Below are positions 1,743 to 31,595 of a stretch of DNA of 64,000 bases, one piece after another (positions within the stretch are counted from its first letter, which is position 1; every line of letters starts with the position of its first letter). The notes beneath the pieces were generated by a model. It made no database searches, was not told where the DNA came from, and worked only from the letters and a program-made list of their open reading frames with translations. Both the position numbers and the translations under genes were made by a program. The DNA is from Armatimonadia bacterium (GTDB taxonomy: Bacteria > Armatimonadota > Zipacnadia > Zipacnadales > UBA11051): assembly GCA_039683575.1 (NCBI GenBank), contig JBDKRC010000235.1, positions 1 through 64,000 on the forward strand, in the 5' to 3' direction.

Positions 1743-2573
1743 CTAGATCAGATCGTCGAATACGTGTCTCCAGCCCTCATCGCACGACGCGGCACGGCGG
1801 ACTATCCAGGGCTCCATGTGGCGGTCGACTGTGATGAGCCCCTTGCGCTCGGTCAGCAGGAGTACCTTCTGTGCGTCGCGGCTCTCCCAACCCGGTACGG
1901 CGCACCAGCCGCCCACGGTATCGAGTTCAGTCACAGTGACCTCGGGCCGATTGGGAAAGTGGTCGACCATGACCTGGAGGAGCCAGGCGCCGTAGCCAGG
2001 TGCGAACTCATCTGCGACAGGGGCCGACTTGCGCAGAACCAGGCCTGCCGTCTCCCGCAGCACCCCAGCAGTCGCGAATGCCGCATCATCCTCATACATC
2101 CTTACGAGCGGCCCCACGAGGTTACCGCGGGCTCCGGTGTAGACCAGTGCCAGACGCTCTTCCAGGGCGCTCCGGGGGAACTCCATGCCCAACGCGGTGC
2201 CGCCCGCAACGAAGACCTGGTACCACACGTCGGCCCCACGGAGCGGGCCACAGAGGTGAAAATGCGCAAGCCACTGTGTCACGGCTTCTTTTAGATATGG
2301 GTCTTCAAGAAGCACCGTACGGCCAAAAGGAGTAAGCTCCGGCCGCTTCACCGCGGAGGCTGGTCCCGACAGCGATATCAGGCCCATGCCTCGAGCGTAG
2401 TCAATGATGGCTGGAACCTTGCCGCTGGACTCGCCCATGGGGATTCCGGTCTCGGCGGCGATCTGCTGATATGTACCCGCGGCTCCCGAGGCAGCATAAC
2501 GCAAGAGCGCATTCAGGAAATGCCTCTCCGGTATGAAGGTCTTGTGGAAGTTGCGTGGCAGGCGATCAGGCAT
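1743..2573 (-). CDS. DUF4007 (SspB-like) protein, second divergent copy
   Basis: N-terminal NFHKTF and LLEDPYLKEAVTQWLAHFHL parallel GHQTF and WDPFLEDDASLWLIHW in the 19.7-kb DUF4007 gene; overlaps the upstream stop by 8 nt. Confidence 0.7.
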   Translation of the reverse strand: MPDRLPRNFHKTFIPERHFLNALLRYAASGAAGTYQQIAAETGIPMGESSGKVPAIIDYARGMGLISLSGPASAVKRPELTPFGRTVLLEDPYLKEAVTQWLAHFHLCGPLRGADVWYQVFVAGGTALGMEFPRSALEERLALVYTGARGNLVGPLVRMYEDDAAFATAGVLRETAGLVLRKSAPVADEFAPGYGAWLLQVMVDHFPNRPEVTVTELDTVGGWCAVPGWESRDAQKVLLLTERKGLITVDRHMEPWIVRRAASCDEGWRHVFDDLI

Positions 2574-5500: not shown

Positions 5501-7875
5501 ATGAGTGGCTGCACGTCGCGGTTCTGGTACACCGCAAGGCTCAGGCCGTCATCGGCTTGTGGGTGCAGCTCCCGGTAGTCGCTCAGGATTCGCCTGATGA
5601 GAGTTGCCTCCCGGCTCTCACGAAACAGCTCGGCATCAGGGATGTCCTCCTCCTCGAAGGCGTCATAGCGCAGCAGCAAGCGGGTCGTCAGGCTGGCCTC
5701 ACCAGGCTCTACGCACCCCAGCCGGTGCACAAACCCTTCGCCGCTCACGCTCGTGTCAAGCTTGCAGTCCTGGTTCACCAGCAGGCCGCAGAGCGGCGTG
5801 TACAGGGAAGCCAGATCGAGGTAGTTGCCCCAGACGATGTTGCGGAAGGATCGTGTGCCTGGAGCCCGCAACTCCCGGGCCGCCAGCCGGGGGAAATACA
5901 CTCGCAGGTACTGGGCCTGCGCCTGGATCATCTCCAACAGCGCTGGATGAAGCAGCGTGACAATCGCGGAGGGTTCGAAACGCTCCCAGAACCACTCGTT
6001 GTCGTCGCGTTTGCGGTCGGCGATGAGGAGGAACGCGCGGAAGAGGAGCGGCCCGAGGAAGCTATGGCGCCCGGTCTCGTCGTGCAGGTAGTAGCGGGCC
6101 GCCTCGCGGTATGCATGGCTCAGAGGCTGCCAGGCGTCCAGCAGGGCCGCGTGGAGCCCGTGGTCACGCGCGTGCATCAGGAACTGCACGTACTGGCGCC
6201 CCAGCTCCTCGATCCGCCACAGCAGAGGGTCACTGGCGGGAAGGCCCGGAGCGTCGAGGAGGTTCAGAACGCGGCTGTCAGGGCTCTCCAGGCCCTGCTG
6301 CAGCACGCGGGTCGTCTCCTCCGCGTCCTTGGCCAGCATAAGCTCTTCGTAGTATGGCACCGTGAAGACAGGCACGTGGCACACCAGCGGATCCGCCATT
6401 GCTCCCGCCGCCCATTCCAGCATCTCGTCTGCGATGCGGTAGGGATGGATCGCCGGGAGGCGCCAGGCGAACTGCCGCTCCACCGGCTTGCCCAGTCCAT
6501 CCCCATCGATGCTGACAGAGAAAACGAGCGAAGGCTCGGCGCTTCCCGCTGGCACACACCTGACCCAATCGCCGGTCAGCGCCACCTCCAGAGCCACCCC
6601 CCGGTCATCTCCCACCAGGTTGCTTAGCTCCAGACCGTCACGCAGCCATTCCTCGACACCGCCGAGGAAGCGGGCCAGCATCTGCCCTGCGTTCCACTCC
6701 TGGTCCTTCTTGGTGTCTCCCCCCAGGTCGTGCTTGAACTCGCTTGTGCGGATGCTAAGGCTCACCAGTGCTTCATGCGGCACAAGCCCTGCGCCTGCAG
6801 CCTCAGCCTTGTAGCTCTCCAGGGTCCGCCAGAGGCCCGTCAGCAGAACGTCGAGTGGGCCCCCGCTAAGCTTGCTCACCGTGTCGCGAGTCCTGGGCTT
6901 GCGGGGGCCCTTGAACCCGAGAATCTCATCGCGGATCGCCACGTAGTCGCAGCCCAGCAGGCGACCACGCAGTTCCGCACGGTTGCTCTGCGCGTACTCC
7001 TGAACTGCCTGCACGAACTGCCGGTTGTCCGCGAAGTCGCCCTTGGCGTCGGGAGAGAACCAGTCCTGTTCCGGCTGGTTCCCTTTCTCCTGGAGAAACG
7101 CGTCGATGGCTCTGAGTGCCTTGTCGCGAGGGCGTGCCTCCATGAAAGCATCGTAGGAGTAGAAACCGACTGCGTCATCGAGATATGGGCCGAAAGAGAC
7201 GTGGCTGCCGAAGCGGTAGCCTGTGAAATGTGGCAGCCTGTGCAGACCGAGCGAGCGTAGCAGTAGTCTCTCAGCGTCACGACCATCCTGGCAGGCCGCC
7301 AGGTCCATCGTCTCCAGCAGGCTGCTAACTTGCAGAATGTCTGCCAGTCCCCGATCTACCAAAGGCTTGAGTACCTCGTCGAAACGCTGGTACGTGTCCG
7401 TCTCGTAGGCGATATGCGCGCCGGTCAGAACCTCCCGCACCCAGGGCGTGAAGCTGCCCTCCATTTCCTGCCCCCACACCACCTCCGGGCCGCAGTGGTG
7501 AAAGTCTGCGAGGCCGCTGCGGTCGGTTATCAGGTCCACCCCCACCAGGACGGTCAAGGGACCTAGTCCGTTGCGGACCGCCGTCAGGCTGCCCTGGTAC
7601 TCACACCATTCATCTCGCTCCTCGATCCGCGCCGCTGCGCTTCGCTCGGCTTCTCGAACCGGCTGCCCCCACTGCTTCCGCAGCTCTCTGGCTATCTTGA
7701 ACAACGGCCGTGGGAGCCCTGGGCCTGCCAGCCACTCGTCCTCCAGCAGCCGGCCGACTTCCAGTGTGGCCTCGGCGGGCAACGCCGGAATGACCACCAG
7801 GACAGCGTCATCCGTTGCCTGTCCGGCGGCCTGATCGCGGATGTAGCGGCATACCGAACGCGCGAAGAGCTTCAT
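2566..7875 (-). CDS. 1769-aa SspH/DptH(DndH)-like protein with C-terminal HerA/VirB4-type ATPase
   Basis: NRHLLVFGASGMGKT (Walker A), VLVLDEVQNL (Walker B), LREGRKFGFSLILATQ; PD-(D/E)xK-like RPDLLW...FECK before the ATPase; ATGA overlap with the previous gene. Confidence 0.8.
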   Translation of the reverse strand: MKLFARSVCRYIRDQAAGQATDDAVLVVIPALPAEATLEVGRLLEDEWLAGPGLPRPLFKIARELRKQWGQPVREAERSAAARIEERDEWCEYQGSLTAVRNGLGPLTVLVGVDLITDRSGLADFHHCGPEVVWGQEMEGSFTPWVREVLTGAHIAYETDTYQRFDEVLKPLVDRGLADILQVSSLLETMDLAACQDGRDAERLLLRSLGLHRLPHFTGYRFGSHVSFGPYLDDAVGFYSYDAFMEARPRDKALRAIDAFLQEKGNQPEQDWFSPDAKGDFADNRQFVQAVQEYAQSNRAELRGRLLGCDYVAIRDEILGFKGPRKPRTRDTVSKLSGGPLDVLLTGLWRTLESYKAEAAGAGLVPHEALVSLSIRTSEFKHDLGGDTKKDQEWNAGQMLARFLGGVEEWLRDGLELSNLVGDDRGVALEVALTGDWVRCVPAGSAEPSLVFSVSIDGDGLGKPVERQFAWRLPAIHPYRIADEMLEWAAGAMADPLVCHVPVFTVPYYEELMLAKDAEETTRVLQQGLESPDSRVLNLLDAPGLPASDPLLWRIEELGRQYVQFLMHARDHGLHAALLDAWQPLSHAYREAARYYLHDETGRHSFLGPLLFRAFLLIADRKRDDNEWFWERFEPSAIVTLLHPALLEMIQAQAQYLRVYFPRLAARELRAPGTRSFRNIVWGNYLDLASLYTPLCGLLVNQDCKLDTSVSGEGFVHRLGCVEPGEASLTTRLLLRYDAFEEEDIPDAELFRESREATLIRRILSDYRELHPQADDGLSLAVYQNRDVQPLIAALDGYLREVCDKRDPGRAPYALSVTILSESGDEGEVKTWLSEWRARWEAAESQASLKHYRSVELSAAHRLLATARSDGQKRREREQQFLPLLASLDVDVVILNGFMAAGDEGGRFETVPEYYALKRTLKFPVLEKPFCASRDPGQMLRRERVLSNRQFLLGSEYTEIMARLRHPDAVPEAHHLVMGSGDYAPWQTVVDGLHQRADWVVCIDPCVDERLLSCRAGDGDAASGAAVREIIGFGSGVGSHGEANYTVSTEQFRLSDILRRLKPAIRDLYGGWDAATYDTVAESVLREAQQLSGLSLVRATGLGQHIHDFMAYALTRKLLHAPADAICDQLISLDAYQHWFDTSLTSTRPDLLWLVVLRSEDGRLQLNARLFECKLARQPDYYLDEARLQLENGLDHLVEVFLPCCEDAAGGDDARPDQRYWWLQLQRLVASKGLVQQENRESVLAALERLTDGDYDICWGGAVVCFWTDRPGEDIDWGDEWNHSILGQQMPLGVVSVSNAAVPKICQPGHGLAAEFGGSLCFRAARHEDSEMDEDETADELDEQTAAAPVIPPSTWQAEPIEAPSPQETPVAAVPTVPDQPEAAPVAISVPERILIGTSVNGAREVYWEFGHEELANRHLLVFGASGMGKTYAIQCLLQGLGQSGQSSLIVDYTDGFFDHQLDPHFVSRMHPTQHIVRLSPLPLNPFRQQANLIGQMELPESPINTASRVAGVFAGVYQMGEQQTAALYQAVLTGIQSAGPTGMTLSDLAGLLEALAEQGGTAGQAAGSVLSKIRPFLDQNPFGQEQPESWERLFTDPEHRCHVLQLAGFLRDTSRLITEFALIDLYWFYRGRGTKDVPRVLVLDEVQNLDHREDSPLAQLLREGRKFGFSLILATQNLSNLSKDERDRLFNAEHKLFFRPVDTEIGTYAGIIAGSIGGKAEDWAAKLARLQKGECYSVGPSLNTLTGALETKAFHTRVTPLGERIADA

Positions 7876-9557
7876 GCTTGCCTCTCAGCTTCCACAAAAG
7901 GGTTCTGGACCAAGGAGTCGGCGTCAGACAGCCGCACGAGGAAGCCTGCCGCCTCCAGCATGCTCATGAACCAGGCCTCGGCCTCCCCGCCGAGGGTCAG
8001 CAGACAGGTTCTGCCACACCAGGCACTGGACGCACCCAACCGCCGGTCATCGACCGCGAGACCGTAGTGAGCGAACATCAGGTCCTTGAAACCCTCGTAG
8101 GTCACGCGCTTCCCGGGTGGCAGCAGTGACAGGACTAGGTAGCGCAGCAGATGCTCGTTGAGAACGAACCGGGCGCCAGGGCCCTGGCGGGGCACGATCA
8201 GCCCCAATCGCTTGGCCACCGATAGGAAGAGCTTGTGCCCATAGCGCGTGTCTGCCTCCGGGTACAGATCGTTGGCCTGCTTACCGTTTGCTTCGACGGC
8301 ATACTTCCGTCTGGCCACGGCCTCCTCGATCTCGGGATGGCGCAGCGCCTCCCGGATGAGGCGCTGTAGCCGGCTGACACAGCGCTGCGAGATGCGTTTG
8401 GCGGGCGTGGAGTCGCCGCTCGCGTCGGAGAGCGCCCACACGAACCCCAGTGGTCCAGCATACTCCCGCACCTCCGCGGCCCACTCGACATAGCGGGCGC
8501 TCTGAGCGCACAGGCTGCGCAGGAGTTGGAGGGCGCAGGCTGTCTGCATCAACTCGAGCCGCTCGATAGGGTCGACGGCCGCTGCGCAGACGTGCACCAG
8601 TTCCAGTGCAAACAGCCACCCCTCGGGCCAGCCCTCGCTCGGGCACCAGCCGCAGTCGCTGAAACGGGGCTGCCCCCCGTCGTCACAATCGGTCTGCTGC
8701 GATGTCTCCGGCTCAATAACCTGATCAATGAAGCGTGCCAGTGCTCCAACACCCTCCGGACACTGACCGGTCAGTACCCGCCGCAGGCCTACCTCCAGGG
8801 CATCGCGCACTCGCTCAGGCGAGCGTTCGTCTTCGCCGAACCCGATGTCCGCTTCTTCACACCAGCCGCGGATCTGTTCAGGGCTCTGGCGCAGCGCGTT
8901 GCAGAGCTGCAGGTACAGCACCTCGCCACCGCGCGCCACGAAGCGATGCCGTCCGACTGTGAAGAACTGGGGCATCTTCTCCGCCACTTCCGCCCACGTC
9001 GTCACCCCCCTGCGCCGAGCCTCTGTCTCGTTCCATATGGTGTCACCGGCAAGTACTTCGGGGCAGATCGGCGTGAACGCCTGAGCACACCACGTCCGCC
9101 GCCCTCCTATAGCCTGGAACCCAAGGAAGAGGTTCTCCAGCGTCTGGACTACCTCGCGCGGTGAAACGCCCTCGGGCGGCCTCAGTCTCTCTGGACTCTG
9201 TAGCTCAGCCAGCAAGCTGATGTAATGCTCTCTGTGGCTGCTGTGGCGGCTCGCAAGCTTCGATGCCCCCATAAACGCGAACAGCTTCAGGTTGAGACGC
9301 GCTCGCGGGCTGTATCGCAACGGCTGGCCCTCGGGCCAATCGCATAGACTGTCCAACCCCGGTATTGTCCTGTCGACTGGCAGAGAGGTGTTTCCGATCC
9401 GCTTTGGTGAGGCGGCAACCAGCAGCAGCTCGATCAGCAGCTCCGGAACCGTCTGGTCCGCGAAAAAGCGCCGCCCGAACAACTGAACGGCGGGGTTGGC
9501 GTCCTGGCCCTCAGCCGACAGTATGTCGAGTGGGATGCTCGGGAAGGGCGTAGGCAT
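7872..9557 (-). CDS. SspG/DptG-like defence-associated protein
   Basis: Start MPTPFP at 9557 (TGATG overlap with the upstream stop); sits between the F-like and H-like genes; C-terminal LEAAGFLVRLSDADSLVQNPF resembles DptG-type tails. Call is largely positional. Confidence 0.6.
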   Translation of the reverse strand: MPTPFPSIPLDILSAEGQDANPAVQLFGRRFFADQTVPELLIELLLVAASPKRIGNTSLPVDRTIPGLDSLCDWPEGQPLRYSPRARLNLKLFAFMGASKLASRHSSHREHYISLLAELQSPERLRPPEGVSPREVVQTLENLFLGFQAIGGRRTWCAQAFTPICPEVLAGDTIWNETEARRRGVTTWAEVAEKMPQFFTVGRHRFVARGGEVLYLQLCNALRQSPEQIRGWCEEADIGFGEDERSPERVRDALEVGLRRVLTGQCPEGVGALARFIDQVIEPETSQQTDCDDGGQPRFSDCGWCPSEGWPEGWLFALELVHVCAAAVDPIERLELMQTACALQLLRSLCAQSARYVEWAAEVREYAGPLGFVWALSDASGDSTPAKRISQRCVSRLQRLIREALRHPEIEEAVARRKYAVEANGKQANDLYPEADTRYGHKLFLSVAKRLGLIVPRQGPGARFVLNEHLLRYLVLSLLPPGKRVTYEGFKDLMFAHYGLAVDDRRLGASSAWCGRTCLLTLGGEAEAWFMSMLEAAGFLVRLSDADSLVQNPFVEAERQA

Positions 9558-12500
9558 CAGTCGACCTCCAGACGATGCTCGCTGACTGTGAACCGTTGCT
9601 GGTGGAACATACGGTTGGTCCGCAGCCGCACCAGGATCAGGTCTGGGCCGGTCTCGGGTGGGTAGGCATGCAAGAGCTGACCCTTGAAGCGCTCCAGACG
9701 GTCGGCGTAGCACGCCTGTAGCTGCCGACTGATCTCACCTCGCTGGCGTGCCATAACGTAGTCGAGGAAAGACAGGTTCAACACCAAACACACCGGCTCA
9801 AGCCCGTGCTCACTAGTGAGTTCCAGCTCTCGCCTCTTGGCGCCACTCCCTCCGTCCACCGTCTGCAACGACAGGTCGAAGTCACTCGTGGGCACCGAGG
9901 TCAGGACAATCTGGGCGCTTTGGCGCACCTGAGACGAGCGACGGCTCAAGGTCATATGCAGTCTCTCATCAGGCAGAGGCCCCTCGGGCAGGCGTACACC
10001 GGTAAGGTGCTCTTGCAGCACCTGGAATAGCCGTGTCTGCAGGAGCTTGCGCTCACGGTAGTCCAGTTGGGTCGCCTGCTGCCATGCGGCATGCCGGATG
10101 ATCATGGGCGAATCGAGGTATGCCGTGAGGTAGCGCTCGCTTTCATCTTCGTCAAAGGCGTAGAGGAAGAACAGGACCCGGCGAGCCTGCTCGCGAGCAA
10201 CCGCCTGCGCCTCCTCCTCCGTGATCCCCCTACCGGCGCCCGCGTCGCATAGCTGTTGGAAGACATCCTGCAGTCCCTCGATCACCAAGGGGGTATTGCG
10301 TGTCTCTATCGACTGCCACAGGCGGCGTTCCCACGCCGCACAGAGCCGACGGCCGAACCCTTGAGCCCGCGCCAGGCGCACGGCCTGCAGCTGCAGGGCC
10401 GGGAGATCGATGTTCCTTCCGTCGTCGCCGAAAAACCTGTTGAAGAACATATATTCCGGTCCCGGCGAGGAGGCCGATCTGGCGACCATCGAGGCCGCCT
10501 GCGCACAACTGAGCCCGGAGGTCAGCATATATGCCAGGTGAGCCGACGCCTGCCGGAGGGTGAGACGCGCGCCGTACTCATACATACGGCGGTATGCCAG
10601 CAGAAGACGCTGGGTTACGAGACCGGGATGCTGCTGCAACAGTGCGGCATTCTGACGGATGGGGCATCCGCTTCGGCATGCCTTCCCCTCGCAGTCATCC
10701 CAGTTCGCGGGCTCCAGGAGACGGCGGAACAGCCTCTCCACCAGCGGGAGGTTGTCCATCTTGGAAAGGTTGATGATCTGTAGCGGGACCCCGTGGAAGT
10801 GCAGTGGCCTTGGTCCCGCCTGCTCCAGCGCGGTCAGAAGTGCGCTCTCGGTCTCCCGCCAGTCCGCCTTCAGCGCCTGCTCGTGCTGCCGGAAGGTCTC
10901 CAGCAAGGTACCGCTGTTCGAGACCAGCAGGAAGCGAGGCCCCCCCGCGGCCAGCATCTCCGCCAGCAACTCCGCACGCTCTTCCCCGTCCCACTCGCTT
11001 AGGTCCTTTACGAGCGACGTGTCCAATGCTTCGACTTGGCTGTCTTCCCTGCGTTCTAGGGGCGCCTGCAGCGGGCGATGGAGGTGCTGGTTGCGGAACC
11101 GCTTCAGGCATTGCAGCAGGATGATGGACTTGCCGTCTCCAGCGTGGCCCGTTAGGACCACATGTGTCCGTGTTTCTCCTAGCAGAAGCTCGTTGATGAC
11201 ATCCGCCAGAGGGTGGGCAACCTGTACCGATCCGAACAACGGGTTGGTCGCCTGCGACTCGGCCAGAGAGTTCTTGCTGCCACCCCGGCGACAGTGCAGG
11301 CTGTTGAGGTAGGCAACGAAGGCGTTGCCCTCAGGCTGCTCCTGTTCGAGCTGCGGGCCGGAGAACGGTGCAATCTGCTCGGGTTGATCACCGCGGGCTA
11401 TTTCAGTCGGGGCTTCCCGGTCTGTGCGGGTTGGTTGCACGTCTCGTATGGGGGTGAGAGCCGCTTCCTCGCGTTCGGGCACTCCAAGGGGCGCCAGATC
11501 GGCCGCGGGTGTCTCAGCGCTCGCTTCGACCTGCTCTGCTTCGACCTGCGGAAGCGCTCGTTGCAGCGCCCGCAGCATCTCGGCGGCAGTGCCGAAACGC
11601 TTGTTGGCTTCTGTGGCTACAGCCTGGGCGAACCATAGCTCAAGCTCCGGGCCGAGGGCGCGTCGCTCCGGCGGCAGCGGCGCCGGCTGCACGCCAACCT
11701 GCAGCTGCGTGTACGGCGTCCGCCCACAGTACCACTCGAAAAGGGTCACTCCGAGAGCAAACAGATCTCCCTGTTCGCAGTAGTCGCGATCTTGCCCCGA
11801 CCGCAAGTCCGGCGGCACGTAGCCCTCAGTGCCCTGGTATGGCGCAATCTTCGGGAAGCTGGCGCATCCAAAGTCCACGATGACTGGCAGCCGGCTGTCG
11901 GTAAGCAGGATGTTCTCAGGCTTGATGTCGTTGTGCAGGATGGGCTCAGCACCGTCGTCGCCCCGGTGGCCATGCAGGGCCGCCAGCGCTTCCAGGAGCT
12001 GTGTTGCCCAGGCTGCGAACTGATCAAGGTCAGGCAGTAACCCGGCGCTGATCTCGTTCCGCAGACTCCGCTCGGAAAGCCGCTGGAAGGCGATGTAGAA
12101 GCGTCCGTCCCCTTCCCAGGTGCTGTGATTCTCCACCCGGACGATCCCGGGGTGGTGCACGGCTCCGGCAAACTGCTGCTCCTCGAGCCCGTGCCACTGC
12201 GGCACATCTCGGCCAAACAGCTTCACGACCACCAGTCGGCCTCTTGGGCCGACAGCCCGGTACAGTTGCGCCTCTACCCCCTGCTTGATGAGACACTCGA
12301 TCTCGTAGAGGTCATTGCGGGTGCCTGGCTCCAGGACCGGGTTCAGCACGGGAAGCCGCGGTGGGGTATCGTCGCCAGCCAGGCGCGCAAGCACTGCCGC
12401 TGCCGTAGCAAGACGCTGGGAGGGTTCTTGACGGACCAAGTCCGAGACCAACGCGCGCGCCCGTGCGGACACTCCCACCAGGGCCTCCGCTTCAACCTCG

Positions 12501-14218
12501 GCCAAGCCCCCGCCGGTCTTCTCCAGGTCCGTCGAGCAGGCAAACGGCGGCCTGCCCGTAAGCAGCTCGAAGAGAACCACCCCGAGACTGAACAGGTCGG
12601 CCGCCTCAGTGAGGTCCCCTCCGTAGTAGACCTCGGGGGCGATGTAGGGTGATCTGGGCAGTCTCTCGGCGTCCAGAATCACCGTCTGATGCTCCTCCTC
12701 CAGACGATAGGAAAGGTCGAAGTTGGTCAGCTTCGGCACCCCGCCAGCCATCACGACGTTCTCGGGGGAGAGAGCACGATGGATCACGTCTCGCTCGTGA
12801 CTTGCCTGCAGACCCTGAAGCACTCCCTCTGCCACTGTGAGAGCGTCTTGTTCCTGCAGCGGTTCGCGATCCTGAAGCCGGTCTCTAAGCGTTCCACTCT
12901 CCGACCAGTCACTGCCCTCAACCAGGTAGCCCATCTCGCTGGGAATGCGCCAGACCTTGAGAATGTTCGGATGATCCCCGATGGCCAGCACAGATTCGAG
13001 CGCCCCTTGGGCTCGTCTCCAGAGCTCCTCTCTCTCCTCCCCCGAGCCGGGCGGAGGCGGGAAGAACACGCGAAGGCGGCTCAGTCTGCGGCGCCCAGCG
13101 CCGGTTGGCCGGGCAATCACCTCGGCGCGGTCCTCACTCTGGTACAGCCGCTCCACCACCTCATACCCGGGGAACGCGTAGTCGCGGGGCGGGTTGGGGG
13201 TGGTGAGTTCCTCCAGGTAGTCACAGAAGGCCTTGACCTGCGCTTCCTGCAGAATGGTTCCCTTGCGTTCGCGTTGCCGCTTGAGGTAGGCGATCAGTGA
13301 CTTAGTGCCATCGAAGGTAGGATTGCTGGTAGTCGTGTCCGGGTCTGCAGCCCCGTTCACGGTGGCTTCAGGGTTCGTCAGCACTACGACCGACTCCACG
13401 AATACTTCGGGGAATATGGCGAAACCACGGTCGTACATCCCACGAAGCAGCTTGGCCTTGTGCGAGTTGCCAAGGTGCGGATCGGGACGACACGAGGAAC
13501 GGTTCAGCAGCCAGGAGTAGGGACGAATGTCGATCTGCCCGCTCCAATGCTTCAGTTCCACCACGTAGATACCGAACGGGCACACCAGGATCAGATCAGT
13601 CTCAAAATAGCGATTGGACTGGCGGTCGTGGATCTGACGGTTTGCCAGGGCATAGCCAAGTTCCTGGGTAGTCAGGCGCTTGCAGATGTCCTCGATCGCC
13701 GCGGCCTCGTGGGGGAATGCCCCGGGTGATGTCCCAGTCACTATGGTGCCCGCGGGGCCGCCAGCCGCATTGCTCCCCTCCCTGACAGTCGTCAGGCGGC
13801 TGATGATCTCATAATCGACCCGTTGGCGGGTTGCCTCCACTTGAAGAAAATCGAATACTTCGCCGTCCAGTTGAGCGTGGCTTACGAGCTCGCTGAGAGC
13901 TGCCGGCGAGCCAACGGAGGTGGTGCGAGCCAACTCAGCTTCCTTGCCATCACACGGCACAAGTTCCCAAAAGCTGGAGCTGCGGAGGTGGAAGAACGGT
14001 GCCAGCGGCCGGTCTCGATCATTGGGCCCGGCATACGTGGCGAATACCTCGGTGAAGCACTCCCGGAACTCTGCGTTGAAGAACACGCATCCGTCCCGGA
14101 CGCGCCCCCTCCGGATGAGCTCAATCACGGCCAGCATAGCTAAGTACTTGTGCGGCTTGAACATAGGGCCAGGCTGCCCCAGATCCCTGAGCTCGCTGAT
14201 GAAGTCGTCGATGGACAT
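9557..14218 (-). CDS. 1553-aa fusion: PT sulfur-binding-domain-like, NERD nuclease, pseudokinase, Ser/Thr kinase, SspF/DptF-like P-loop region
   Basis: PHKYLAML...PFFHLRSSSFWEL (SBD-like); ETDLILV...VVELKHW (NERD); HRALSPEN/NFD (kinase 1, degenerate); HNDIKPEN/DFG (kinase 2); VVLTGHAGDGKS. Confidence 0.8.
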   Translation of the reverse strand: MSIDDFISELRDLGQPGPMFKPHKYLAMLAVIELIRRGRVRDGCVFFNAEFRECFTEVFATYAGPNDRDRPLAPFFHLRSSSFWELVPCDGKEAELARTTSVGSPAALSELVSHAQLDGEVFDFLQVEATRQRVDYEIISRLTTVREGSNAAGGPAGTIVTGTSPGAFPHEAAAIEDICKRLTTQELGYALANRQIHDRQSNRYFETDLILVCPFGIYVVELKHWSGQIDIRPYSWLLNRSSCRPDPHLGNSHKAKLLRGMYDRGFAIFPEVFVESVVVLTNPEATVNGAADPDTTTSNPTFDGTKSLIAYLKRQRERKGTILQEAQVKAFCDYLEELTTPNPPRDYAFPGYEVVERLYQSEDRAEVIARPTGAGRRRLSRLRVFFPPPPGSGEEREELWRRAQGALESVLAIGDHPNILKVWRIPSEMGYLVEGSDWSESGTLRDRLQDREPLQEQDALTVAEGVLQGLQASHERDVIHRALSPENVVMAGGVPKLTNFDLSYRLEEEHQTVILDAERLPRSPYIAPEVYYGGDLTEAADLFSLGVVLFELLTGRPPFACSTDLEKTGGGLAEVEAEALVGVSARARALVSDLVRQEPSQRLATAAAVLARLAGDDTPPRLPVLNPVLEPGTRNDLYEIECLIKQGVEAQLYRAVGPRGRLVVVKLFGRDVPQWHGLEEQQFAGAVHHPGIVRVENHSTWEGDGRFYIAFQRLSERSLRNEISAGLLPDLDQFAAWATQLLEALAALHGHRGDDGAEPILHNDIKPENILLTDSRLPVIVDFGCASFPKIAPYQGTEGYVPPDLRSGQDRDYCEQGDLFALGVTLFEWYCGRTPYTQLQVGVQPAPLPPERRALGPELELWFAQAVATEANKRFGTAAEMLRALQRALPQVEAEQVEASAETPAADLAPLGVPEREEAALTPIRDVQPTRTDREAPTEIARGDQPEQIAPFSGPQLEQEQPEGNAFVAYLNSLHCRRGGSKNSLAESQATNPLFGSVQVAHPLADVINELLLGETRTHVVLTGHAGDGKSIILLQCLKRFRNQHLHRPLQAPLERREDSQVEALDTSLVKDLSEWDGEERAELLAEMLAAGGPRFLLVSNSGTLLETFRQHEQALKADWRETESALLTALEQAGPRPLHFHGVPLQIINLSKMDNLPLVERLFRRLLEPANWDDCEGKACRSGCPIRQNAALLQQHPGLVTQRLLLAYRRMYEYGARLTLRQASAHLAYMLTSGLSCAQAASMVARSASSPGPEYMFFNRFFGDDGRNIDLPALQLQAVRLARAQGFGRRLCAAWERRLWQSIETRNTPLVIEGLQDVFQQLCDAGAGRGITEEEAQAVAREQARRVLFFLYAFDEDESERYLTAYLDSPMIIRHAAWQQATQLDYRERKLLQTRLFQVLQEHLTGVRLPEGPLPDERLHMTLSRRSSQVRQSAQIVLTSVPTSDFDLSLQTVDGGSGAKRRELELTSEHGLEPVCLVLNLSFLDYVMARQRGEISRQLQACYADRLERFKGQLLHAYPPETGPDLILVRLRTNRMFHQQRFTVSEHRLEVD

Positions 14219-14231: not shown

Positions 14232-15386
14232 TCAAGGTCTGGTCGAGGTCAGCGCGACCGCCGTTGCCAATTCGCCTACCGCGACGGACACATCTTCCGC
14301 AGTGTTGTAGCGACCGAATGAGAGACGAATCGTCTGTTCCGCCTGGGCCCGCGGGAGCCCCATTGCCAGTAGCACGTGGGATGGCGCCAGAGTGCCTGTG
14401 CCGCAGGCCGAGCCCTGGCTGATGCAGATGCCGCTCGCTCGGGAGATGACCAAGTCTGAGGCGCTACCATGGATCGTGATGCTACTGGTCCCAGGCAACC
14501 GCGGAGCACCTGTCCCGTTGACGGCCATACAGTCCAGACGCCCGGCCAATTCCGCCTCAAACCGGTCGCGCAACGCAGCCGTACGATTGGGCTCAGAGGC
14601 GAGGTCGGCGCTGCAAAGGCGGCAGGCTCTCCCGAAACCGACTATGCCTGGTACGTTCAGCGTGCCAGGGCGCAGACCGTCCTCTTGGCCTCCGCCGAAC
14701 TGCAGCGGCGTTAGCAGCGAGCGCATCTCGCCGTCACGGACGTAGAGAGCGCCGACCCCTTTGGGCCCATAGAGTTTGTGCGCGCTGAAGGAGGCCAGAT
14801 GCACTGGTAGCGCATGCAGGTCCAGCGGGACCTTGCCCAGCACCTGGGCGCCATCCGTGTGCATAAAGGCACCGCACCTCCTGGCCAGCTCGCCTATCTC
14901 CGCTACCGGCTGAACCGTCCCAACCTCGTTGTTACCACCCTGCACGGAAACCAAGAGGGTCTTCTCGTCGATCAGAGACGCCGCAGCCTCAAGATCCACA
15001 CTGGCGTTTCGGTCCACGGGCAGCAGGACCACCTGAAAGCCCTGTTCGGCCAGATAGTCGCAAGGCCCAAGGATGGACTTGTGCTCCACCGCGGATACGA
15101 TGATCTTGCGCCGACCGGGGTTAGAGCGAGCCAAGCCCAGCAGGGCCAGGTTGTTGCTCTCTGTGGCCCCGGAGGTGAAGATGATCTGCCCCGGGCTACA
15201 GCCGGCCAGCGCAGCAACTGCTTCGCGGGCGGCCGCCACGGCAGTAGCGGCAGCGCGCCCCATCACGTGCGGGCTGCCGGCATTGCCGAACTCAGTGGTC
15301 AGGAAAGGCAGCATCGCCTCCACGACCTGGGGGGCGCAGCGCGTAGTGGCGTTACAGTCGAGATAGACAGGCGCCTGTCGTTGCAT
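14232..15386 (-). CDS. sspA: Cysteine desulfurase (IscS/NifS; SspA/DndA role)
   Basis: YLDCNATT, FTSGATESNN, SAHKLYGPKG (PLP lysine), SQGSAC (catalytic Cys); located inside the PT operon. ATG taken at 15386. Confidence 0.92.
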   Translation of the reverse strand: MQRQAPVYLDCNATTRCAPQVVEAMLPFLTTEFGNAGSPHVMGRAAATAVAAAREAVAALAGCSPGQIIFTSGATESNNLALLGLARSNPGRRKIIVSAVEHKSILGPCDYLAEQGFQVVLLPVDRNASVDLEAAASLIDEKTLLVSVQGGNNEVGTVQPVAEIGELARRCGAFMHTDGAQVLGKVPLDLHALPVHLASFSAHKLYGPKGVGALYVRDGEMRSLLTPLQFGGGQEDGLRPGTLNVPGIVGFGRACRLCSADLASEPNRTAALRDRFEAELAGRLDCMAVNGTGAPRLPGTSSITIHGSASDLVISRASGICISQGSACGTGTLAPSHVLLAMGLPRAQAEQTIRLSFGRYNTAEDVSVAVGELATAVALTSTRP

Positions 15387-15457
15387 ACAGCAAGTCCTCA
15401 AGGAGATCTCCGCCAGCCTGGCGGGTGCCCACCACGGTTAGCTCCCGATGGGTTCCT

Positions 15458-16288
15458 TCAGAGAGCGCAGATCAGGCAGCCCCGATCTGCGCTGTCGTCC
15501 GCATCGTCGAGTACCTCGCCAAGCGAGACACCGGCGCGGAAGCCGCCTGCACGTTCGCGACGCTGCTCGAACTCAGCCTCGATCTGTGCTACGCGTTCCG
15601 GTCGCGAGAGCTCCTCCAGGCTTTCACCCTGCACCCAGGTGTAGCGCTGTCCTGTGTCAGTGTCGGCCTTCTCATACTCCATCGCCTGCTTGAAGAGACC
15701 CGGGTGTTCTCTCATCAGCCCAACCCACTCGCGGCGTTGCTGGAAGAAGCAGAAGTAGCACCCCGAACGCGAGCGCCAGCGGTAGTAGTCTGGGAGGCCC
15801 AGGCCGCTCTCCTCCAGTATCCGCAGCACACCGGCTCTGTTAATGCCCTCCTCGATGAACGGGAAGCACGCGACTATGTTGGGCTTCGTTGACAGATAGC
15901 CCTTCCTGTGCCGCTCGTCTGCACGAATGCCCACGTAGGTGACGGCGGGGGTCTCACCGATGAACTTCTCAAATGGCTTCAGTTTGAGATACTCCGTGCA
16001 CCACCGGATCTGCGGTGATGGCAGATAGCCACGACGTATGCTGAGGAGGTCATCGAAGCCCATCCCGTCGTGCTTCAGGCGGATGATCGGTCTGCCGAGA
16101 TAGACTTCCAACCGGTCGAGGTAGTCGTACGTCTCGTCAAGCTCCTTGTCCGTATCACAGAACACGTACTCCATATCCGGCATGCGGTCACGCAGGTGGA
16201 TGGCCAGCGCTGTGCTGTCCTTGCCGCCTGAGAGCGAGAGGATATGCCGGGTGTTTCCGGCTTGCTGAGGCGTGCCGCTGTCACTCAT
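15458..16288 (-). CDS. sspD: PAPS-reductase family protein (SspD-like)
   Basis: SLSGGKDS PP-loop, RWCT, GIRADE, SRSGCYFCFFQ and terminal CLIC; ATG 16288 overlaps the upstream stop. Confidence 0.88.
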   Translation of the reverse strand: MSDSGTPQQAGNTRHILSLSGGKDSTALAIHLRDRMPDMEYVFCDTDKELDETYDYLDRLEVYLGRPIIRLKHDGMGFDDLLSIRRGYLPSPQIRWCTEYLKLKPFEKFIGETPAVTYVGIRADERHRKGYLSTKPNIVACFPFIEEGINRAGVLRILEESGLGLPDYYRWRSRSGCYFCFFQQRREWVGLMREHPGLFKQAMEYEKADTDTGQRYTWVQGESLEELSRPERVAQIEAEFEQRRERAGGFRAGVSLGEVLDDADDSADRGCLICAL

Positions 16289-19200
16289 CTTCTGTGGTGT
16301 CTCCGATCTTGCCCGCGGCAAGCTTGAGGGCCGCCTTCACGACATGTGCAGGCAGCTTCGCTATCGCGGGATTGAGCGCTTTCATGATCTTGTCCGACAG
16401 AGCCTGCGCGCGCTGCATCTCGGCGGGCAGGAGTTCCGGCAGGTCCAACGTGGTAACCGAGGCGCTCCGCATCGTAGCGGCTGCGCTTCTCAGCAGAGCC
16501 CCCACCATCTCCGCTGCTTCCGGGAAACGCTTGCGGTCGAGGTCGCTCCAGTTGCGTGGGGGGCGTTGAGCGACAAGCGCAAGCACCGTCTCGACCCCCT
16601 CAGCTGTGTCGTCGACCTCCTGCATACGCGCCAGCAGAGCCGCTAACCGAGGTTCTCTCACCCACGGCCGTAGGCGGTCGCCGAGGCCTCGCAGCTCATC
16701 CCAGCCCGCCTCCCCTGCTGGTAAGTTGCAGGCGCGTAGTAGAGTGTCACGGGCCGAGGCGATGGCTGTAGGCGCGACTGCCCCCCATTCCCGAAGGCAC
16801 CCGTTAAGGCGCTCAAAGAACTTCTGCACCTGGCCGGTTTCCGTCTCGTCAGCCCCGAACGCAGGGAAGCCCAGCGCGCCAGGGAGATCCGCGAAAAGCA
16901 GTTGCTCCGGGGATCGTGCCGCGGCAAAGGCCTCGCGCAGAGCAACTACCGGCGCGCTCAGTTCCTGAGTGTGCCAGGCCAGTTCCGGGAGGCTGCGCAC
17001 CATCCGGAACAAGGCCCGCACCACCGGCAGAGTCGCTGAGTTCACCTGCAGACTGCGAGCCAGTCGCCCTACCACCTCCGCGCGGGCGCCTGTAACCTGC
17101 CCACCCGCTATGGCGTACAGCTCCGGCCTGCGCATAAGCACTTCGAAGTCCGCGATGCCGACCTCCGGAAGGAATGTGCCTTCGCGGTACAGTGTCGTCT
17201 CATCTGGGTAAGCCAGCATAAAGGCACACAGCAGCACCGGGTGCAGGCCCTCTGGTACGCCAATGGGCGGGGCGGCCAAGCCGGCGAAGAGTCCATCGAG
17301 TTGGACCGGCTCCAGCCCATCGGCCAGAATCTGCCGGTCTAGGAACTCCCAGACCGAAGCGAGAGCAGCATCGCTCGTACGGTCGGGAGGGTGGAAGCCC
17401 CAGCGGCACGAGTCGTCCTCTCGGTGCAAGCCGGTGACCAGAAGGACGGACTCGTACATGCTGCGCTCAGGAGGGTAGCCTTCAAGCCCCAACAGGGGCT
17501 CCCCCGCTCGCGTCAGCATCCTCTCGATCAGGTTGCGGCGGGCAGCGGTTGCGGCCGCGGACAGAGTCCTCCTTGCGATGAGCTCGTTGCGGATGCGTGG
17601 TGACTTGGGGAAGAGGCTGTCACAGACGTCTGAGACCAGCTTGGACACGTCAGTGGGTGTGCGGACGGCCTTCTGCTGTCCGCCCCAGAACCAGAGACAC
17701 TGGCTGCCACGCGGCGCCGGCCGTGGATCCAGGAGGCCATCGAGGTCCCGCAGCAATACCTGCTCCGCCTCGCTGATGCGGATTGAGATCTCTCGACGGG
17801 CCACTCGGTCGTCGCGAAGCTCTGGGGTGTTGTCCCAGACCCAACGCAGCGCAGCTAGCTCCTGAACAGCCGCTCGCAGCTCACCTATCTCTTGCGGCAC
17901 CGCCACCAACAGGTCGTGCCGCGCCCCGGCACCGGCCGTGGCGACGGCGACGAACTCATCAGACCGCTTGAGCGAATAGGCCAGGCACACTGCGACGTGG
18001 GCGGGGGCCGTCTCGGAGGCTTTCCAGTCCAGAGACAGTTCAGATGGGTCGTCGAGGTAAGCCACGGCCAAGTGCCGCAAGGCGCCAGTCTCGAAGCTGT
18101 GCCGGCGTGCGACCAAAGGACGCGGGGGCAGGTAGTGCCTGATGTTCTCCGCCAGGCTGAGCCTGTCCCGCGTGTGGGTAGCGCCCTGCTCAAGACGCTC
18201 ATCGATGTCGACGTCACTGCCTTCCCAGATCTGAAAGGCGTCTGTGAATGTGCGGAACGTCAGGACAGACTTCTCACGCAACTGAGCGAGGCTGTCTTCT
18301 AGTTTTGCCGGCGGCTTGGTCTGGTCTGAGAGAACGAGTGAAAGTACCTGCTGATGGGCCTGTAGGTGGCTGAACTCGCCCAGAGCATTGAGGATCCCCG
18401 TTGACTTCACGAGCGCCTTGTGGAGATCGGTCAGGTCGCTTCTGCGGTCAAGCACGTCCACAGCCTCAAGCCAACGCTTCGCCTGCGGGTGCCGGTACAG
18501 GCCGGTCCCGAAGTTCGCGACGAAGTAGTCGAAAAGGTCAGGTAGCCGGACGAAGGCAGGCGTCCCCCCCTCCGCTGTGTGAGCCCGGAGAAAGTCCTGC
18601 AAGGCATACGGTTCCTGGCTGCTCAGATAGGCGAAGAGAGAGCGTTCGTTCTGCGCAAAGCGCCGGAACAGGTAGGGCAAGGCCACTAACGTAACGGGAT
18701 GGAGTGGATAGGCTCTGACGGCCAGGCGCTCGAAGTCGCGGGGGGGCATCCCCGGAGGAGCGACGACTGGTGCGGCGGCGCGCGCCACCGCCTGCACTCG
18801 CTTCGCCAGTGACGCCGGCAGTTCCCGCCCGGTCGGCCGGAGAGCGCTCGCGATCATCCGCACAACCTGATCAACCGGCTCGAGGAACGGAACGTCGTGG
18901 AAGCGCCCGCCTATCTTCTCCCATTCGCGACGGGTTACCGCATCCAGGTGCTGGCCGTATTCCTCGAACGCCTGATGCAGGAAGCCGAGGAAGAGAACTG
19001 GCTCGACGCCGCTGCGGCTGGCGTATTCGGCGAGTTCCTGCAGCACGAACACATCACCGCGCCGAGGGTCTCGGGCTGCGTACTCGAAGAGCTTGCCCAG
19101 CTCGTCAACAATGACTAGGAGGCCTGTGTAACCTTGTGCTCGGGCAACAGCGGCCAGCTCCTGCAGGGCACCGACGACGTCCCGGCTGTCGGCAAAGGCC

Positions 19201-19709
19201 CCCGCTTGCAGGGCCTTCAGCAGCGCGGCCAAACGCTTCCTTAGTCGCGCGGTAGCGGCGCCCTCCAGCCCTGCGATAGCAGCCAACATGCCCTGTAGCA
19301 GGCAGGCCGCAGCCGGAGCCCGCCGGGCCGTCACCAGCACTGGCAGCATAGTGCCGTTGCCATTGGCGCGAAGGCATCCTTGAGCAAGAGTCTCGGCGAG
19401 GTCGGGGGCAGCCAGCAAAAGCTTCTGCCTCGCCTGGTCCCCTGCGGCGTCTTTGAGGCAGAGCAGGCGCGTCAGGAACACGGCGAAGGCTGATTTGCCG
19501 ACGCCATAGGGGCCGGTAATCGTCCAGGCTCGCGCTACGGAGCCCTCACTTAGCCCCTCTGCGAGACGGTGCAAGGCCTGCCGTGCATTGGCCGTCAGGA
19601 CATAGTCGCCGTTAGTACCGTTGCCGCGCGCATCCTGCTCGAGGCTAACCGACCGCAGGAACCTACGCCCGACCTCCACGTACTGATCCAGCGACTTCTG
19701 CATCTCCAT
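16281..19709 (-). CDS. sspC: 1142-aa P-loop ATPase (SspC-like)
   Basis: ITGPYGVGKS Walker A, LLVIVDELGK Walker B, AYPLHP and AQNERSLF motifs; lies between the DUF4007 and PAPS-reductase genes. Confidence 0.8.
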   Translation of the reverse strand: MEMQKSLDQYVEVGRRFLRSVSLEQDARGNGTNGDYVLTANARQALHRLAEGLSEGSVARAWTITGPYGVGKSAFAVFLTRLLCLKDAAGDQARQKLLLAAPDLAETLAQGCLRANGNGTMLPVLVTARRAPAAACLLQGMLAAIAGLEGAATARLRKRLAALLKALQAGAFADSRDVVGALQELAAVARAQGYTGLLVIVDELGKLFEYAARDPRRGDVFVLQELAEYASRSGVEPVLFLGFLHQAFEEYGQHLDAVTRREWEKIGGRFHDVPFLEPVDQVVRMIASALRPTGRELPASLAKRVQAVARAAAPVVAPPGMPPRDFERLAVRAYPLHPVTLVALPYLFRRFAQNERSLFAYLSSQEPYALQDFLRAHTAEGGTPAFVRLPDLFDYFVANFGTGLYRHPQAKRWLEAVDVLDRRSDLTDLHKALVKSTGILNALGEFSHLQAHQQVLSLVLSDQTKPPAKLEDSLAQLREKSVLTFRTFTDAFQIWEGSDVDIDERLEQGATHTRDRLSLAENIRHYLPPRPLVARRHSFETGALRHLAVAYLDDPSELSLDWKASETAPAHVAVCLAYSLKRSDEFVAVATAGAGARHDLLVAVPQEIGELRAAVQELAALRWVWDNTPELRDDRVARREISIRISEAEQVLLRDLDGLLDPRPAPRGSQCLWFWGGQQKAVRTPTDVSKLVSDVCDSLFPKSPRIRNELIARRTLSAAATAARRNLIERMLTRAGEPLLGLEGYPPERSMYESVLLVTGLHREDDSCRWGFHPPDRTSDAALASVWEFLDRQILADGLEPVQLDGLFAGLAAPPIGVPEGLHPVLLCAFMLAYPDETTLYREGTFLPEVGIADFEVLMRRPELYAIAGGQVTGARAEVVGRLARSLQVNSATLPVVRALFRMVRSLPELAWHTQELSAPVVALREAFAAARSPEQLLFADLPGALGFPAFGADETETGQVQKFFERLNGCLREWGAVAPTAIASARDTLLRACNLPAGEAGWDELRGLGDRLRPWVREPRLAALLARMQEVDDTAEGVETVLALVAQRPPRNWSDLDRKRFPEAAEMVGALLRSAAATMRSASVTTLDLPELLPAEMQRAQALSDKIMKALNPAIAKLPAHVVKAALKLAAGKIGDTTEDE

Positions 19710-20833
19710 TATGAGCCATTTCCTGCGCCGAAGTAGCGATCAAGCAACGCCAAGGCGTCGAATTCGCGACGGCGGTAGATCTGCTTCAGGCCTGCCGTCT
19801 CATCAACAGAGACTGCGCCGTCGGTCAGTTCCTCGAGCTCCTCTACGTACTCGATGAGGCTGTTCTCATCCAGCTTGAAGGCCTGACCGGGACTTCCTTT
19901 TCCGTACAGGCACTGCTGGATGCCCAGTGTGCTCTGGGTCTCGCGAGTACGACTGAAGTGCTGGTCAAGGGCAAACGCAAACACGGGCGCCGGCAGCGAC
20001 GGCTTCGGGCCGATGCCAAAGGCGTACAGGTCTCCGTCAGCAGATGGCTGGATCAGCCGGAGGGATAGCAGGGGACAGTCGAAGCTCTCCTCGGGCAGCG
20101 CTTCTCCGATCTCGGCGCGCGGGGCCGCATAGGTGCGAAGAAAGCAGTCGAAGTCGCGGGACAAGGACGAGCGCGCAACCTTCAGCGCCCCCTTCTCTGC
20201 AACAGAGGCCAGATGGTCTACAGCTTCACGCCGGGTGAAATCGGGACGATGGTAGTGACAGAAGAGCAGCTGCCACGTGGTGCAGACACTTGGGTTTGAG
20301 ACCAGCATCCAGTGGATGAGCCAGAGGGAGGCGTCGTCCTCAAGGAATGGGTCCCAGCCTTCTGGCAACAGCAGAAGGCGCGCCATAGGTGTGGGCTGCA
20401 GTGGCTGCGCTTTGCCTCGCGGCGCACCCGGCACCGGTTCTATGAGCTGCGTCACTGTGCACCAATGTCTTATGCTCTGCACCATATTCTTGCCCACCCC
20501 CAGGTGAACGAGCGCATCCTCATCGGAGAAGATGGTTGCCCGCTGCTCGACGCCCCTTACCCCCTTCTCAAGCCAACCATAGCGGAAAGCAAAGGTCTGG
20601 TGGCCGGAGAAACGATAGGACACCTTGCCCTGCGTGGTCTCATTACTATCGGCAATGATCATCTCGTCAGCTCCGGGACGGGGCTTGCCTGCCGCAGCAG
20701 CTAGGGGGAGGTAGACGGTCGTGCAGAGACCGACGGGGAAGAACGGTGTATCCCCCTCGTAGACCGCAACCTCGGCTGAAGAAGGCGCAATGGCTGTTTC
20801 GACGGCTGTCGAGCCCGGACCTTCCTCTCCCAT
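19709..20833 (-). CDS. sspB: DUF4007 family protein (SspB-like); true start may be ATG 20662
   Basis: FSGHQTFAFRYGWLEKG, LGVGKNMVQSIRHW, WDPFLEDDASLWLIHW, DCPLLSLRLI. Confidence 0.88.
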   Translation of the reverse strand: MGEEGPGSTAVETAIAPSSAEVAVYEGDTPFFPVGLCTTVYLPLAAAAGKPRPGADEMIIADSNETTQGKVSYRFSGHQTFAFRYGWLEKGVRGVEQRATIFSDEDALVHLGVGKNMVQSIRHWCTVTQLIEPVPGAPRGKAQPLQPTPMARLLLLPEGWDPFLEDDASLWLIHWMLVSNPSVCTTWQLLFCHYHRPDFTRREAVDHLASVAEKGALKVARSSLSRDFDCFLRTYAAPRAEIGEALPEESFDCPLLSLRLIQPSADGDLYAFGIGPKPSLPAPVFAFALDQHFSRTRETQSTLGIQQCLYGKGSPGQAFKLDENSLIEYVEELEELTDGAVSVDETAGLKQIYRRREFDALALLDRYFGAGNGS

Positions 20834-29667: not shown

Positions 29668-29922
29668 TCCGTCCCGTCCGCGTTGGGACGTGGTCGGGTG
29701 TCGCTGATTCGGAGCTGGCCAGCAGGGCATCGCAGGTCCCGCTGAGGTAGCGTTACAGAGATGATCCGGGCACCCCGCGCCGACGTGGGTACGGACTGGG
29801 GAGGCCGTTGCATACGACGTCCAATCCCACATGAGACTTTCGCCTTGGGCCCGGGCATCGTATGATAGACCGCGGCAATGGACCCAAAGCCGATTGCCAG
29901 CAACTGGAGGAGGTACCCGCAG

Positions 29923-30717: not shown

Positions 30718-30879
30718 CGGGCGCCTGGCGTCATAGGGTTCCGCTCGTTCACGGCGTCTCATCTCATAATCTCATCGGCGAGGCGGATGAAATGCAGGGC
30801 CGTTATCCGTCCCACGTGGTCGGACCGCGGCCTTTCCACGGGCCCATGGCCGTACGGTGGTGGGGGTGGTGAGGCAGCC

Positions 30880-31542: not shown

Positions 31543-31595
31543 CCGTTCGCGACGATCTGGTTCCCGTCCGGCGCGCCATCAGCGGTATTCGACAC

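Follow-up and report, generated by a model that had tools for sequence, protein, structure and literature searches.

A sulfur-binding domain on an SspF effector co-varies with the writer subunit SspD and with SspG in recombining ssp loci

We analyzed positions 1 to 64,000 (forward strand) of contig JBDKRC010000235.1 of an Armatimonadia bacterium (GCA_039683575.1). This stretch, hereafter the window, carries an SspABCD-SspFGH locus for modifying DNA with phosphorothioate (PT), where the SspF gene (9557-14218, minus strand, 1553 aa, with GAGGAG directly 5′ of its ATG) begins with a sulfur-binding domain (SBD), followed by a NERD nuclease region, a pseudokinase, a kinase and the SspF core. In related loci, the type of this SBD co-varies with a loop of the writer subunit SspD and with a loop of SspG, and the loci are mosaics in these segments. 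On balance, we consider it likely that the SBD reads the PT mark of its own host in a sequence context set by SspD, holding SspFGH off marked host DNA. The domain layout of the protein has been published before in outline (Rakesh 2024, PMC10853773; Hu 2023), and the general idea of self/non-self sensing by PT readers is not new (Rakesh 2024). The matched, recombining specificity pattern on this known kind of protein was not found described: no report of an SspD-SBD-SspG match appeared in the literature searched, most subscription journals being outside its coverage.

The N-terminal sulfur-binding domain

A sequence-only reading of this DNA had noticed the motifs PHKYLAML and PFFHLRSSSFWEL at the N-terminus of the 1553-aa protein, and had compared them with the SBD of HNH nucleases of the ScoMcrA type. 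Both motifs were located, at aa 22-29 (nt 14132-14155, minus strand) and aa 74-86 (nt 13961-13999, minus strand) respectively. Sequence and fold confirm that aa 1-144 (13787..14218, minus strand) form a real SBD; its nearest solved relative is, however, the SBD of a PD-(D/E)XK PT-dependent endonuclease from Hahella ganghwensis (SBDHga, 8H0L), and not that of the HNH enzyme ScoMcrA. A phmmer search of the PDB with aa 1-144 returned SBDHga as its single hit (E 1.5e-17), and the SBD family profile matched the same structure with an E value of 9.1e-39. The AlphaFold2 model of the domain, made from an alignment of 72 family sequences, has a mean pLDDT of 97.2. Foldseek placed 8H0L at rank 1 (TMq 0.86-0.88) and the SprMcrA SBD after it (TMq 0.63-0.70), with the ScoMcrA SBD 5ZMO at rank 10 (TMq 0.64), below one Cdc6 chain. 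With VIA-align, the model superposed on 8H0L with Z 21.3 and a root mean square deviation of 2.0 over 143 residues, and on the ScoMcrA and SprMcrA SBDs with Z 12.2-12.8, the next fold (unrelated winged helices) scoring 8.8. Pfam and PADLOC profile scans gave no model covering the SBD, and NCBIfam NF045808 matches it weakly, under its cut-off. The host genome (96% complete) yielded this one SBD only, and no second writer or silent cassette was found in it.

The sulfur pocket of Hga is made of H25, K26, L75, P76 and H79 (PMC10602919). These residues align to H23, K24, A73, P74 and H77 of the window protein; among 91 full SBDs, H23 is present in 88, K24 in 85, and P74 and H77 in 91 each. At the lid position, A73 of the window stands against L75 in Hga and Y164 in ScoMcrA, and R68 is retained. 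The lid residue varies among known SBDs (PMC6224610), and together with loops L3 and L4 this position is known to touch DNA (PMC10602919, PMC6224610). SBDHga and the window domain share their fold (TM 0.88), the H/K/P/H pocket and a short L4 loop region, and in both proteins a PD-(D/E)XK-type nuclease lies further along the chain. They differ at the lid, where Hga L75 is replaced by A, in their L1 and L4 contacts, and in their setting: Hga restricts incoming PT DNA (PMC10602919), whereas the window SBD sits on SspF in a PT-writer operon.

Co-variation of the SBD with SspD and SspG

The homolog sample consisted of the best 120 of 580 homologs, and the locus sample of 43 loci from genomes plus 80 from metagenomes, the best among at least 88. 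Two unrelated NERD proteins (L042, L043) were excluded from all counts, and the resulting 121 loci and the window were grouped into 96 clusters at 90% NERD identity. Full SBDs are found in 91 of the 120 homologs and partial ones in 7. Phylogenetic analysis separates a type A (39 SBDs, the window among them and Hga as sister) from a type B (34 SBDs), with an SH-aLRT of 92. Loops L3 and L4 and the lid residue distinguish the two types, R70 being present in 39/39 type-A domains, T104 in 34/34 and R107 in 33/34 type-B domains. SBD type is scattered over the NERD-kinase, SspB and SspC trees: it changes 13 times on the SspB tree and 13 times on the SspC tree, whereas the SspD tree, based on aa 120-287, has only 4 changes. 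The effector tree is a quick tree, and those of SspB, SspC, SspD and SspG are FastTree or quick trees.

SspD is the PAPS-reductase-fold writer subunit (15458..16321, minus strand; PADLOC SspD E 3e-109, supported by a model and a fold search). Its residues 96-110 (15992..16036, minus strand) correspond to the specificity loop of DndC, and TIGR03183 matches at aa 96-124. DndC loop 135-145, which has been proposed to read the modification motif (PMC12193691), is homologous to SspD 97-107; in both proteins the loop lies just before the RWC cysteine and varies between subtypes, although that work covers Dnd and is largely predicted, and the window enzyme is an SspD. Type A is marked by R96, Y99 and E110 in this segment. 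Position 110, two residues past the RWC cysteine, is E or D in 35/35 type-A clusters and R or K in 32/32 type-B clusters (67/67), two clusters that held both SBD types having been split before the count; columns 96 and 99 follow type closely. SBD type and SspD agree in 9/9 independent pairs on the SspB tree and in 11/11 on the SspC tree. Position 110 was picked after the fact and was then checked on new loci from 1,153 further genomes, where seven of seven held-out loci (no more than 71% identical in DNA to the loci sampled first) fit, two of them encoding SBD-SspF proteins without NERD. The number of mismatches is zero in 74 clusters and loci. In the SBD-less clusters with a readable short SspD, residue 110 is R or K in 13/13.

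The association is confined to few parts of the locus. No column of SspB, SspC, SspH or the NERD-kinase-SspF part tracks SBD type with an accuracy above 0.77, and an association with these proteins was rejected; SspA follows type modestly (16 loci). In loci that contain sspA, the type-B SspD proteins show 67-70% and 50% identity to type-A neighbours outside aa 85-113, versus 54-59% and 24% to other type-B proteins; inside aa 85-113 the order is reversed, with 47% to type-A neighbours and 55% to other type-B proteins. A predicted SspD-SBD complex scored 0.00, the mark being 0.32, and speaks neither for nor against such a contact.

Residue 110 of SspD is R in translated ssp loci of E. coli (two) and A. 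baumannii, taken as proxies for writers of the CpsCA motif. As the window has E110, its motif may not be CpsCA. Among candidates for the SspD of a strain in which CpsCA was measured, two Vibrio plasmid matches proved not to be ssp loci and the window DNA had no E. coli match. A scan of the genome for under-represented four-base sequences gave no clue to the PT motif.

One further site tracks SBD type. It lies in sspG (7872..9713, minus strand; PADLOC SspG E 4.5e-14; the true start is probably an ATG near 9554), at residue 256, about 4.8 kb from the SBD, and nothing in between exceeds an accuracy of 0.73. In the window, the variable loop of SspG (aa 240-257; 8943..8996, minus strand) ends with H256-R257. 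This HR pair is present in 27/31 type-A clusters and in 0/22 type-B clusters; in the held-out loci the counts are 3/3 and 0/3. When the loop is left out of the SspG tree, 14 changes of type are counted on it, with agreement in about 10.3 of 11 independent pairs (p 0.002), a figure computed with row L045_B mislabelled. That row carried the SspG of L044, and L045_B as an SspG exception was an artefact.

Closely related loci show how these segments are exchanged. The loci L121 (type B) and L122 (type A) are 100% identical in SspB, SspC, SspG, SspH and NERD, with 67% identity in SspD and 30% in the SBD; the difference is a single ~1.2-kb block that starts within sspD and extends as far as the SBD's end (L121 5420-6620). 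These are nearly identical metagenome contigs, in which either a recent swap or a tolerant SspG may be seen. Other close pairs have the same block boundaries, with sspA included where it lies between sspD and the SBD. In the pairs L072/L103 and L077/L080, the sspG loop stands out as an isolated patch of about 130 bp with 53-60% DNA identity, the rest of the gene being mostly 83-100% identical. A match preserved across two separate exchanges is a sign of selection.

Proposed self-reading of the PT mark and its alternatives

We propose that SspABCD would write a single-strand PT at a motif picked by the SspD 96-110 loop, with different motifs for types A and B, and that the variable loop of SspG would read the bases of the same motif. 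An SBD finding sulfur there would leave the complex inactive or released; on unmarked incoming DNA the pocket would stay empty and the SspH nuclease-translocase would act. NERD and kinase may serve as optional back-up effectors on the same subunit, a role proposed for such domains by Rakesh 2024 (PMC10853773). Specificity would change through a swap of the ~1.2-kb block from the 3′ part of sspD to the SBD (longer with sspA) and of the separate ~130-bp sspG patch. We put forward more tentatively the wider scheme of a three-part recombining code, in which the SspD loop sets the motif, the SspG loop reads the bases and a repurposed type IV SBD reads the sulfur as self. Strains could then switch between at least two motifs by exchanging the sspD-SBD cassette and the sspG patch, and the motif written by the E110 class would not be CpsCA.

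Canonical SspFGH damages unmarked DNA and is toxic without its own PT motif, a toxicity that GpsAAC does not rescue (PMC8092258), which favours restraint by the SBD. The reverse arrangement would be licensing: host PT bound by the SBD would switch the complex on, as in SspE, and the system would be silent in PT-free cells. Licensing fits all of the co-variation, and SspE does license its nuclease via a hydrophobic PT pocket (PMC13251355). We nevertheless find it unlikely, for canonical SspFGH is toxic without PT, unlike SspE (PMC8092258), and SBD-less forms keep their catalytic motifs, an observation less easily reconciled with an SBD that acts as on-switch.

The neighbourhood of the SBD also bears on its role. 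Wherever the SBD is intact and the flank spans 900 nt or more, the ssp writer genes are directly upstream (66/66 clusters; the window counted, the degenerate L096 not). In control SBD loci, an ssp gene occurs within about 1.5 kb in 4/33, full flanks being available in only 20, and SBD-HNH enzymes lie near dnd genes in under 3.6% of cases (PMC7461809). The type IV description of an enzyme with no cognate PT writer beside it does not apply to the window SBD family. Since SspFGH depends on its writer in any case, adjacency to it says little by itself. In the three clusters where the effector stands with a different, downstream writer, the SBD pocket is degenerate (L025/L096) or no SBD is seen (L003/L005 and L022), in line with self-reading; the upstream flank of L022 is, however, only 246 nt.

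We also recorded SBD genes beside ssp genes in L156, L135, L149 and L150; three of them encode proteins of about 312-315 aa, that of L135 is HNH-like and that of L156 lies between sspC and sspD. In L124 (9513-16757) and L125 (193-7559), an effector module with a degenerate SBD, or with none seen, is followed by a BrxP-like writer composed of a long PAPS reductase with an Fe-S domain, a DUF4007 protein, an SspC-like ATPase and a desulfurase.

For fusion partners, the best 150 SBD hits were surveyed through their 144 new representatives, some of them fragments. In 25/144 the SBD is joined directly to SspF, with neither NERD nor kinase present, and in 12/144 it is joined to a DUF4007-like domain. 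A third SBD clade comes right behind sspBCD in six loci of the host's phylum (L158-L163), alone or on a DUF4007-like domain. The SBD is thus tied more closely to the writer and SspF than to NERD. The short SBD-SspF proteins measure about 730-780 aa and occur in types A and B (e.g. P0137, P0143, P0149, P0154 and P0168; loci L195 and L199); a plasmid search found no full-length SBD-SspF. In L158-L163, no SspF was seen and SspD 110 is R or K; a protein of 1300-1870 aa lies downstream, followed, where the flank was annotated, by PglZ/BrxL (L158, L160, L162) or by a HerA gene (L159, L161). Six other proteins (P0121, P0122, P0150, P0151, P0155 and P0158) carry two tandem SBD-like domains and no recognised nuclease.

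These fusions speak to another explanation, in which the SBD and NERD form a type IV add-on that cuts foreign DNA bearing a different PT motif, and SspD co-variation only serves to avoid the host's own motif. The SBD enzymes studied to date restrict PT DNA (PMC10602919, PMC6224610, PMC7461809), NERD has an intact motif and adjoins the SBD, as the PD-(D/E)XK domain does in Hga, SBD-HNH-type genes stand beside ssp genes in the 4/33 control loci, an mcrA homolog has been placed inside a BREX-4 PT operon (PMC12914056), and self-avoidance likewise predicts co-inheritance. In contrast, 25 of the SBDs are joined to SspF without any NERD and 12 to a DUF4007-like domain, the type rule holds in the NERD-less SBD-SspF loci L166 and L174, and self-avoidance would be hard to achieve, since Hga, the sister of type A, binds all tested PT motifs (PMC10602919). 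We judge an add-on of this kind to be unlikely as well, to about the same degree as licensing.

Several observations weigh against self-reading by the SBD. In the literature consulted, every SBD enzyme described attacks PT DNA, as just noted. The window SBD is without the basic L1 contacts of Hga and has G, P or A at the L4 contact positions, so its affinity may differ, and H77 is Y in 6/34 type-B SBDs. The three core specificity positions of DndC correspond to SspD 102-104, where types A and B are not separated; sites 96, 99 and 110, which are diagnostic, lie in or beside the loop, offset from these positions. The third SBD clade is closer to type A yet is paired with an R/K SspD. On the SspG side, four type-A clusters have HD in the loop, L069 and the held-out L195 are type B with H at position 256, L121 retains the SspG of L122, and the sspG patch does not tell whether SspG matches SspD or the SBD. 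In 22 of the 120 homologs the SBD is absent with NERD and kinase intact, and 13 clusters have a writer upstream and no SBD. As a sensor, the SBD would be accessory and not essential.

The recombination data add to these points. The SBD lies within the same exchanged block as sspD, contiguous in L121/L122 and in other pairs, and for SspD aa 120-287 a monophyletic type B is compatible with the approximately unbiased (AU) test (not rejected, p-AU 0.108), only three supported pairs there giving p 0.25. The SBD could thus ride along with sspD, selection matching only SspD and SspG while a dispensable SBD is sequence-blind or idle. Such hitchhiking seems improbable to us, less likely than either licensing or a type IV add-on: the type-specific residues are nearly fixed in the DNA-contact loops of the SBD, type-B SspD proteins of sspA-containing loci resemble their type-A neighbours outside aa 85-113 and not inside, and mismatches are lacking altogether. 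Still more improbable is a matching of proteins to each other, with the SBD, the SspD loop and the SspG loop co-evolving as contacts of a writer-effector complex and not via DNA. It would lead to an identical three-way co-variation, with the charge reversal at SspD 110 as part of it; the variation lies, however, in DNA-facing SBD loops and in the homolog of the proposed DndC DNA-reading loop (PMC12193691), and the sulfur pocket is conserved in both types.

The self/non-self switch suggested by the sequence-only reading fared differently in its two parts. Sensing of the self mark, which we favour, is supported in that SBD type is matched by SspD and by SspG; switching of NERD and kinase by the SBD is weakened by the homologs that keep both without an SBD, and is probably secondary because SBD-SspF fusions exist that have neither.

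The ssp locus and related systems

On the minus strand, the genes are ordered sspB, sspC, sspD, sspA, the SBD-SspF gene, sspG and sspH, beyond which come another DUF4007-like gene and a gene for an SspC-like ATPase. PADLOC identified the sspBCDA-FGH genes, in agreement with the PT-writer locus recognised earlier from the sequence; with its desulfurase, an sspF with Walker A and an sspH with an FtsK/HerA domain, the SspABCD-SspFGH set is complete by PADLOC and motifs. The sspB gene (DUF4007; 19709..20833, minus strand) matches PADLOC SspB with E 1.5e-88 and is also recognised by Pfam, the sspC AAA+ ATPase gene (16281..19709, minus strand) scores 1057 bits with PADLOC SspC, and the cysteine desulfurase gene sspA (14232..15401, minus strand) matches with E 2e-135. 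The sspH/dndH-like gene (2566..7875, minus strand; PADLOC DndH E 4e-60, SspH E 6e-18) encodes a HerA/FtsK ATPase with a PD-(D/E)XK motif (D1150, E1172, K1174) that is present in 56/56 aligned homologs. The second DUF4007/SspB-like gene (1743..2573, minus strand) is divergent, was recognised by Pfam and PADLOC, and has the same position in L124-L126. The SspC-like ATPase, assigned by homology, runs off the contig after the first 576 of about 1430 aa (1..1728, minus strand); the rest matches the end of contig C161 (L201), a join inferred from homology. Beyond it, C161 carries a PT-associated putative methyltransferase (TIGR04096) and then a Mre11/Rad50-like pair.

No dndC was found in the host genome (96% complete), and neither pglZ nor brxL (BREX type 4) is among the genes scanned in the window or C161, the whole genome not having been searched for them. 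SspD also matches PDB entry 21FY, 'PptA' (E 3.9e-9), with homologs in 44 phage records; a literature search found no paper on PptA (21FY). Elsewhere in the window (28363-37503) are an AAA ATPase together with an M41 peptidase gene (plus strand), and an IstB-like ATPase together with a GntR-like HTH gene (minus strand), which may belong to a transposon.

The 'NERD nuclease and kinase' of the sequence-only reading are both present in the 1553-aa protein, which has in addition a second, inactive kinase domain and an SspF core. The NERD region, of PD-(D/E)XK type (13184..13726, minus strand; aa 165-345), matches Pfam PF08378 at aa 179-281 (E 1.3e-12), and its E206, D208, E221 and K223 are retained in 119-120 of 120 homologs. 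In the pseudokinase (12359..13171, minus strand; about aa 350-620), HRD and DFG are replaced by HRA and NFD. The Ser/Thr kinase (11534..12331, minus strand; about aa 630-895) has intact catalytic motifs (K666, D764, K766, N769, DFG 782-784), with K666, D764, K766, N769, D782 and G784 present in 120/120 homologs. The SspF/DndF core (9557..11326, minus strand; PADLOC SspF E 5e-26 and 3e-25) shows a Walker A GHAGDGKS, an Asn in Walker B and a strand-2 KD, the derived P-loop features given for the DndF core in section 20 of PMC10853773.

Membership of the protein in PglW or MAD6 was considered and rejected: it scores 178 bits against the curated cut-off of 990 for PglW and 349 against 460 for MAD6. 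The NERD-pseudokinase-kinase block is common to type 2 BREX PglW, MAD6 and the window protein, which ends in an SspF core instead. It has every element of kinase-fused DndF proteins, namely a winged helix-turn-helix (wHTH), NERD, an inactive kinase, an active kinase and a P-loop core with a Walker B Asn. Rakesh 2024 (PMC10853773) lists the architecture wHTH+NERD+inactive and active S/T/Y kinase+DndF and proposes PT-reading wHTH domains for self/non-self discrimination; the domain order and the derived P-loop core are the same as here, with the SBD equated to the wHTH. In the main-text parts of that paper, whose supplement may list such proteins, no sulfur pocket is stated for the DndF-fused wHTH and the term SspF is absent. 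It argues that DndFGH is decoupled from writers, in contrast to the window family, which is tightly coupled to sspBCD and type-matched. An SBD+kinase clade was given as 3% of SBDs by Hu 2023. The SspABCD-SspFGH system of Vibrio anguillarum FF-93 (PMC8092258) has the same sspBCD(A) and F, G and H genes, a Walker A in F and an FtsK-like domain in H; in the window, F carries an SBD, NERD and two kinase domains, and a second DUF4007-like gene and an SspC-like ATPase gene follow sspH.

If the proposed mechanism is true, a PT-attacking domain has been reused to protect PT DNA. Exchange of specificity is familiar from HsdS of type I restriction-modification systems, which changes specificity by recombining variable target segments in a conserved frame; in the window family, specificity would be split over three proteins and the mark would be a backbone sulfur. 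How SspFGH and DndFGH discriminate self from non-self with only 10-15% of sites PT-marked is poorly understood, and the motif-setting subunit of Ssp and Brx writers has been left open (PMC12914056). Reviews assign DNA recognition to SspB (PMC12707154); in contrast, SspB does not track SBD type in our loci, and SspD does. The named residues and the near-identical natural pairs (L121/L122, L072/L103 and L077/L080) make both questions testable by small swaps. The family would also supply mapping tools with two new SBD clades and possibly with a new PT motif.

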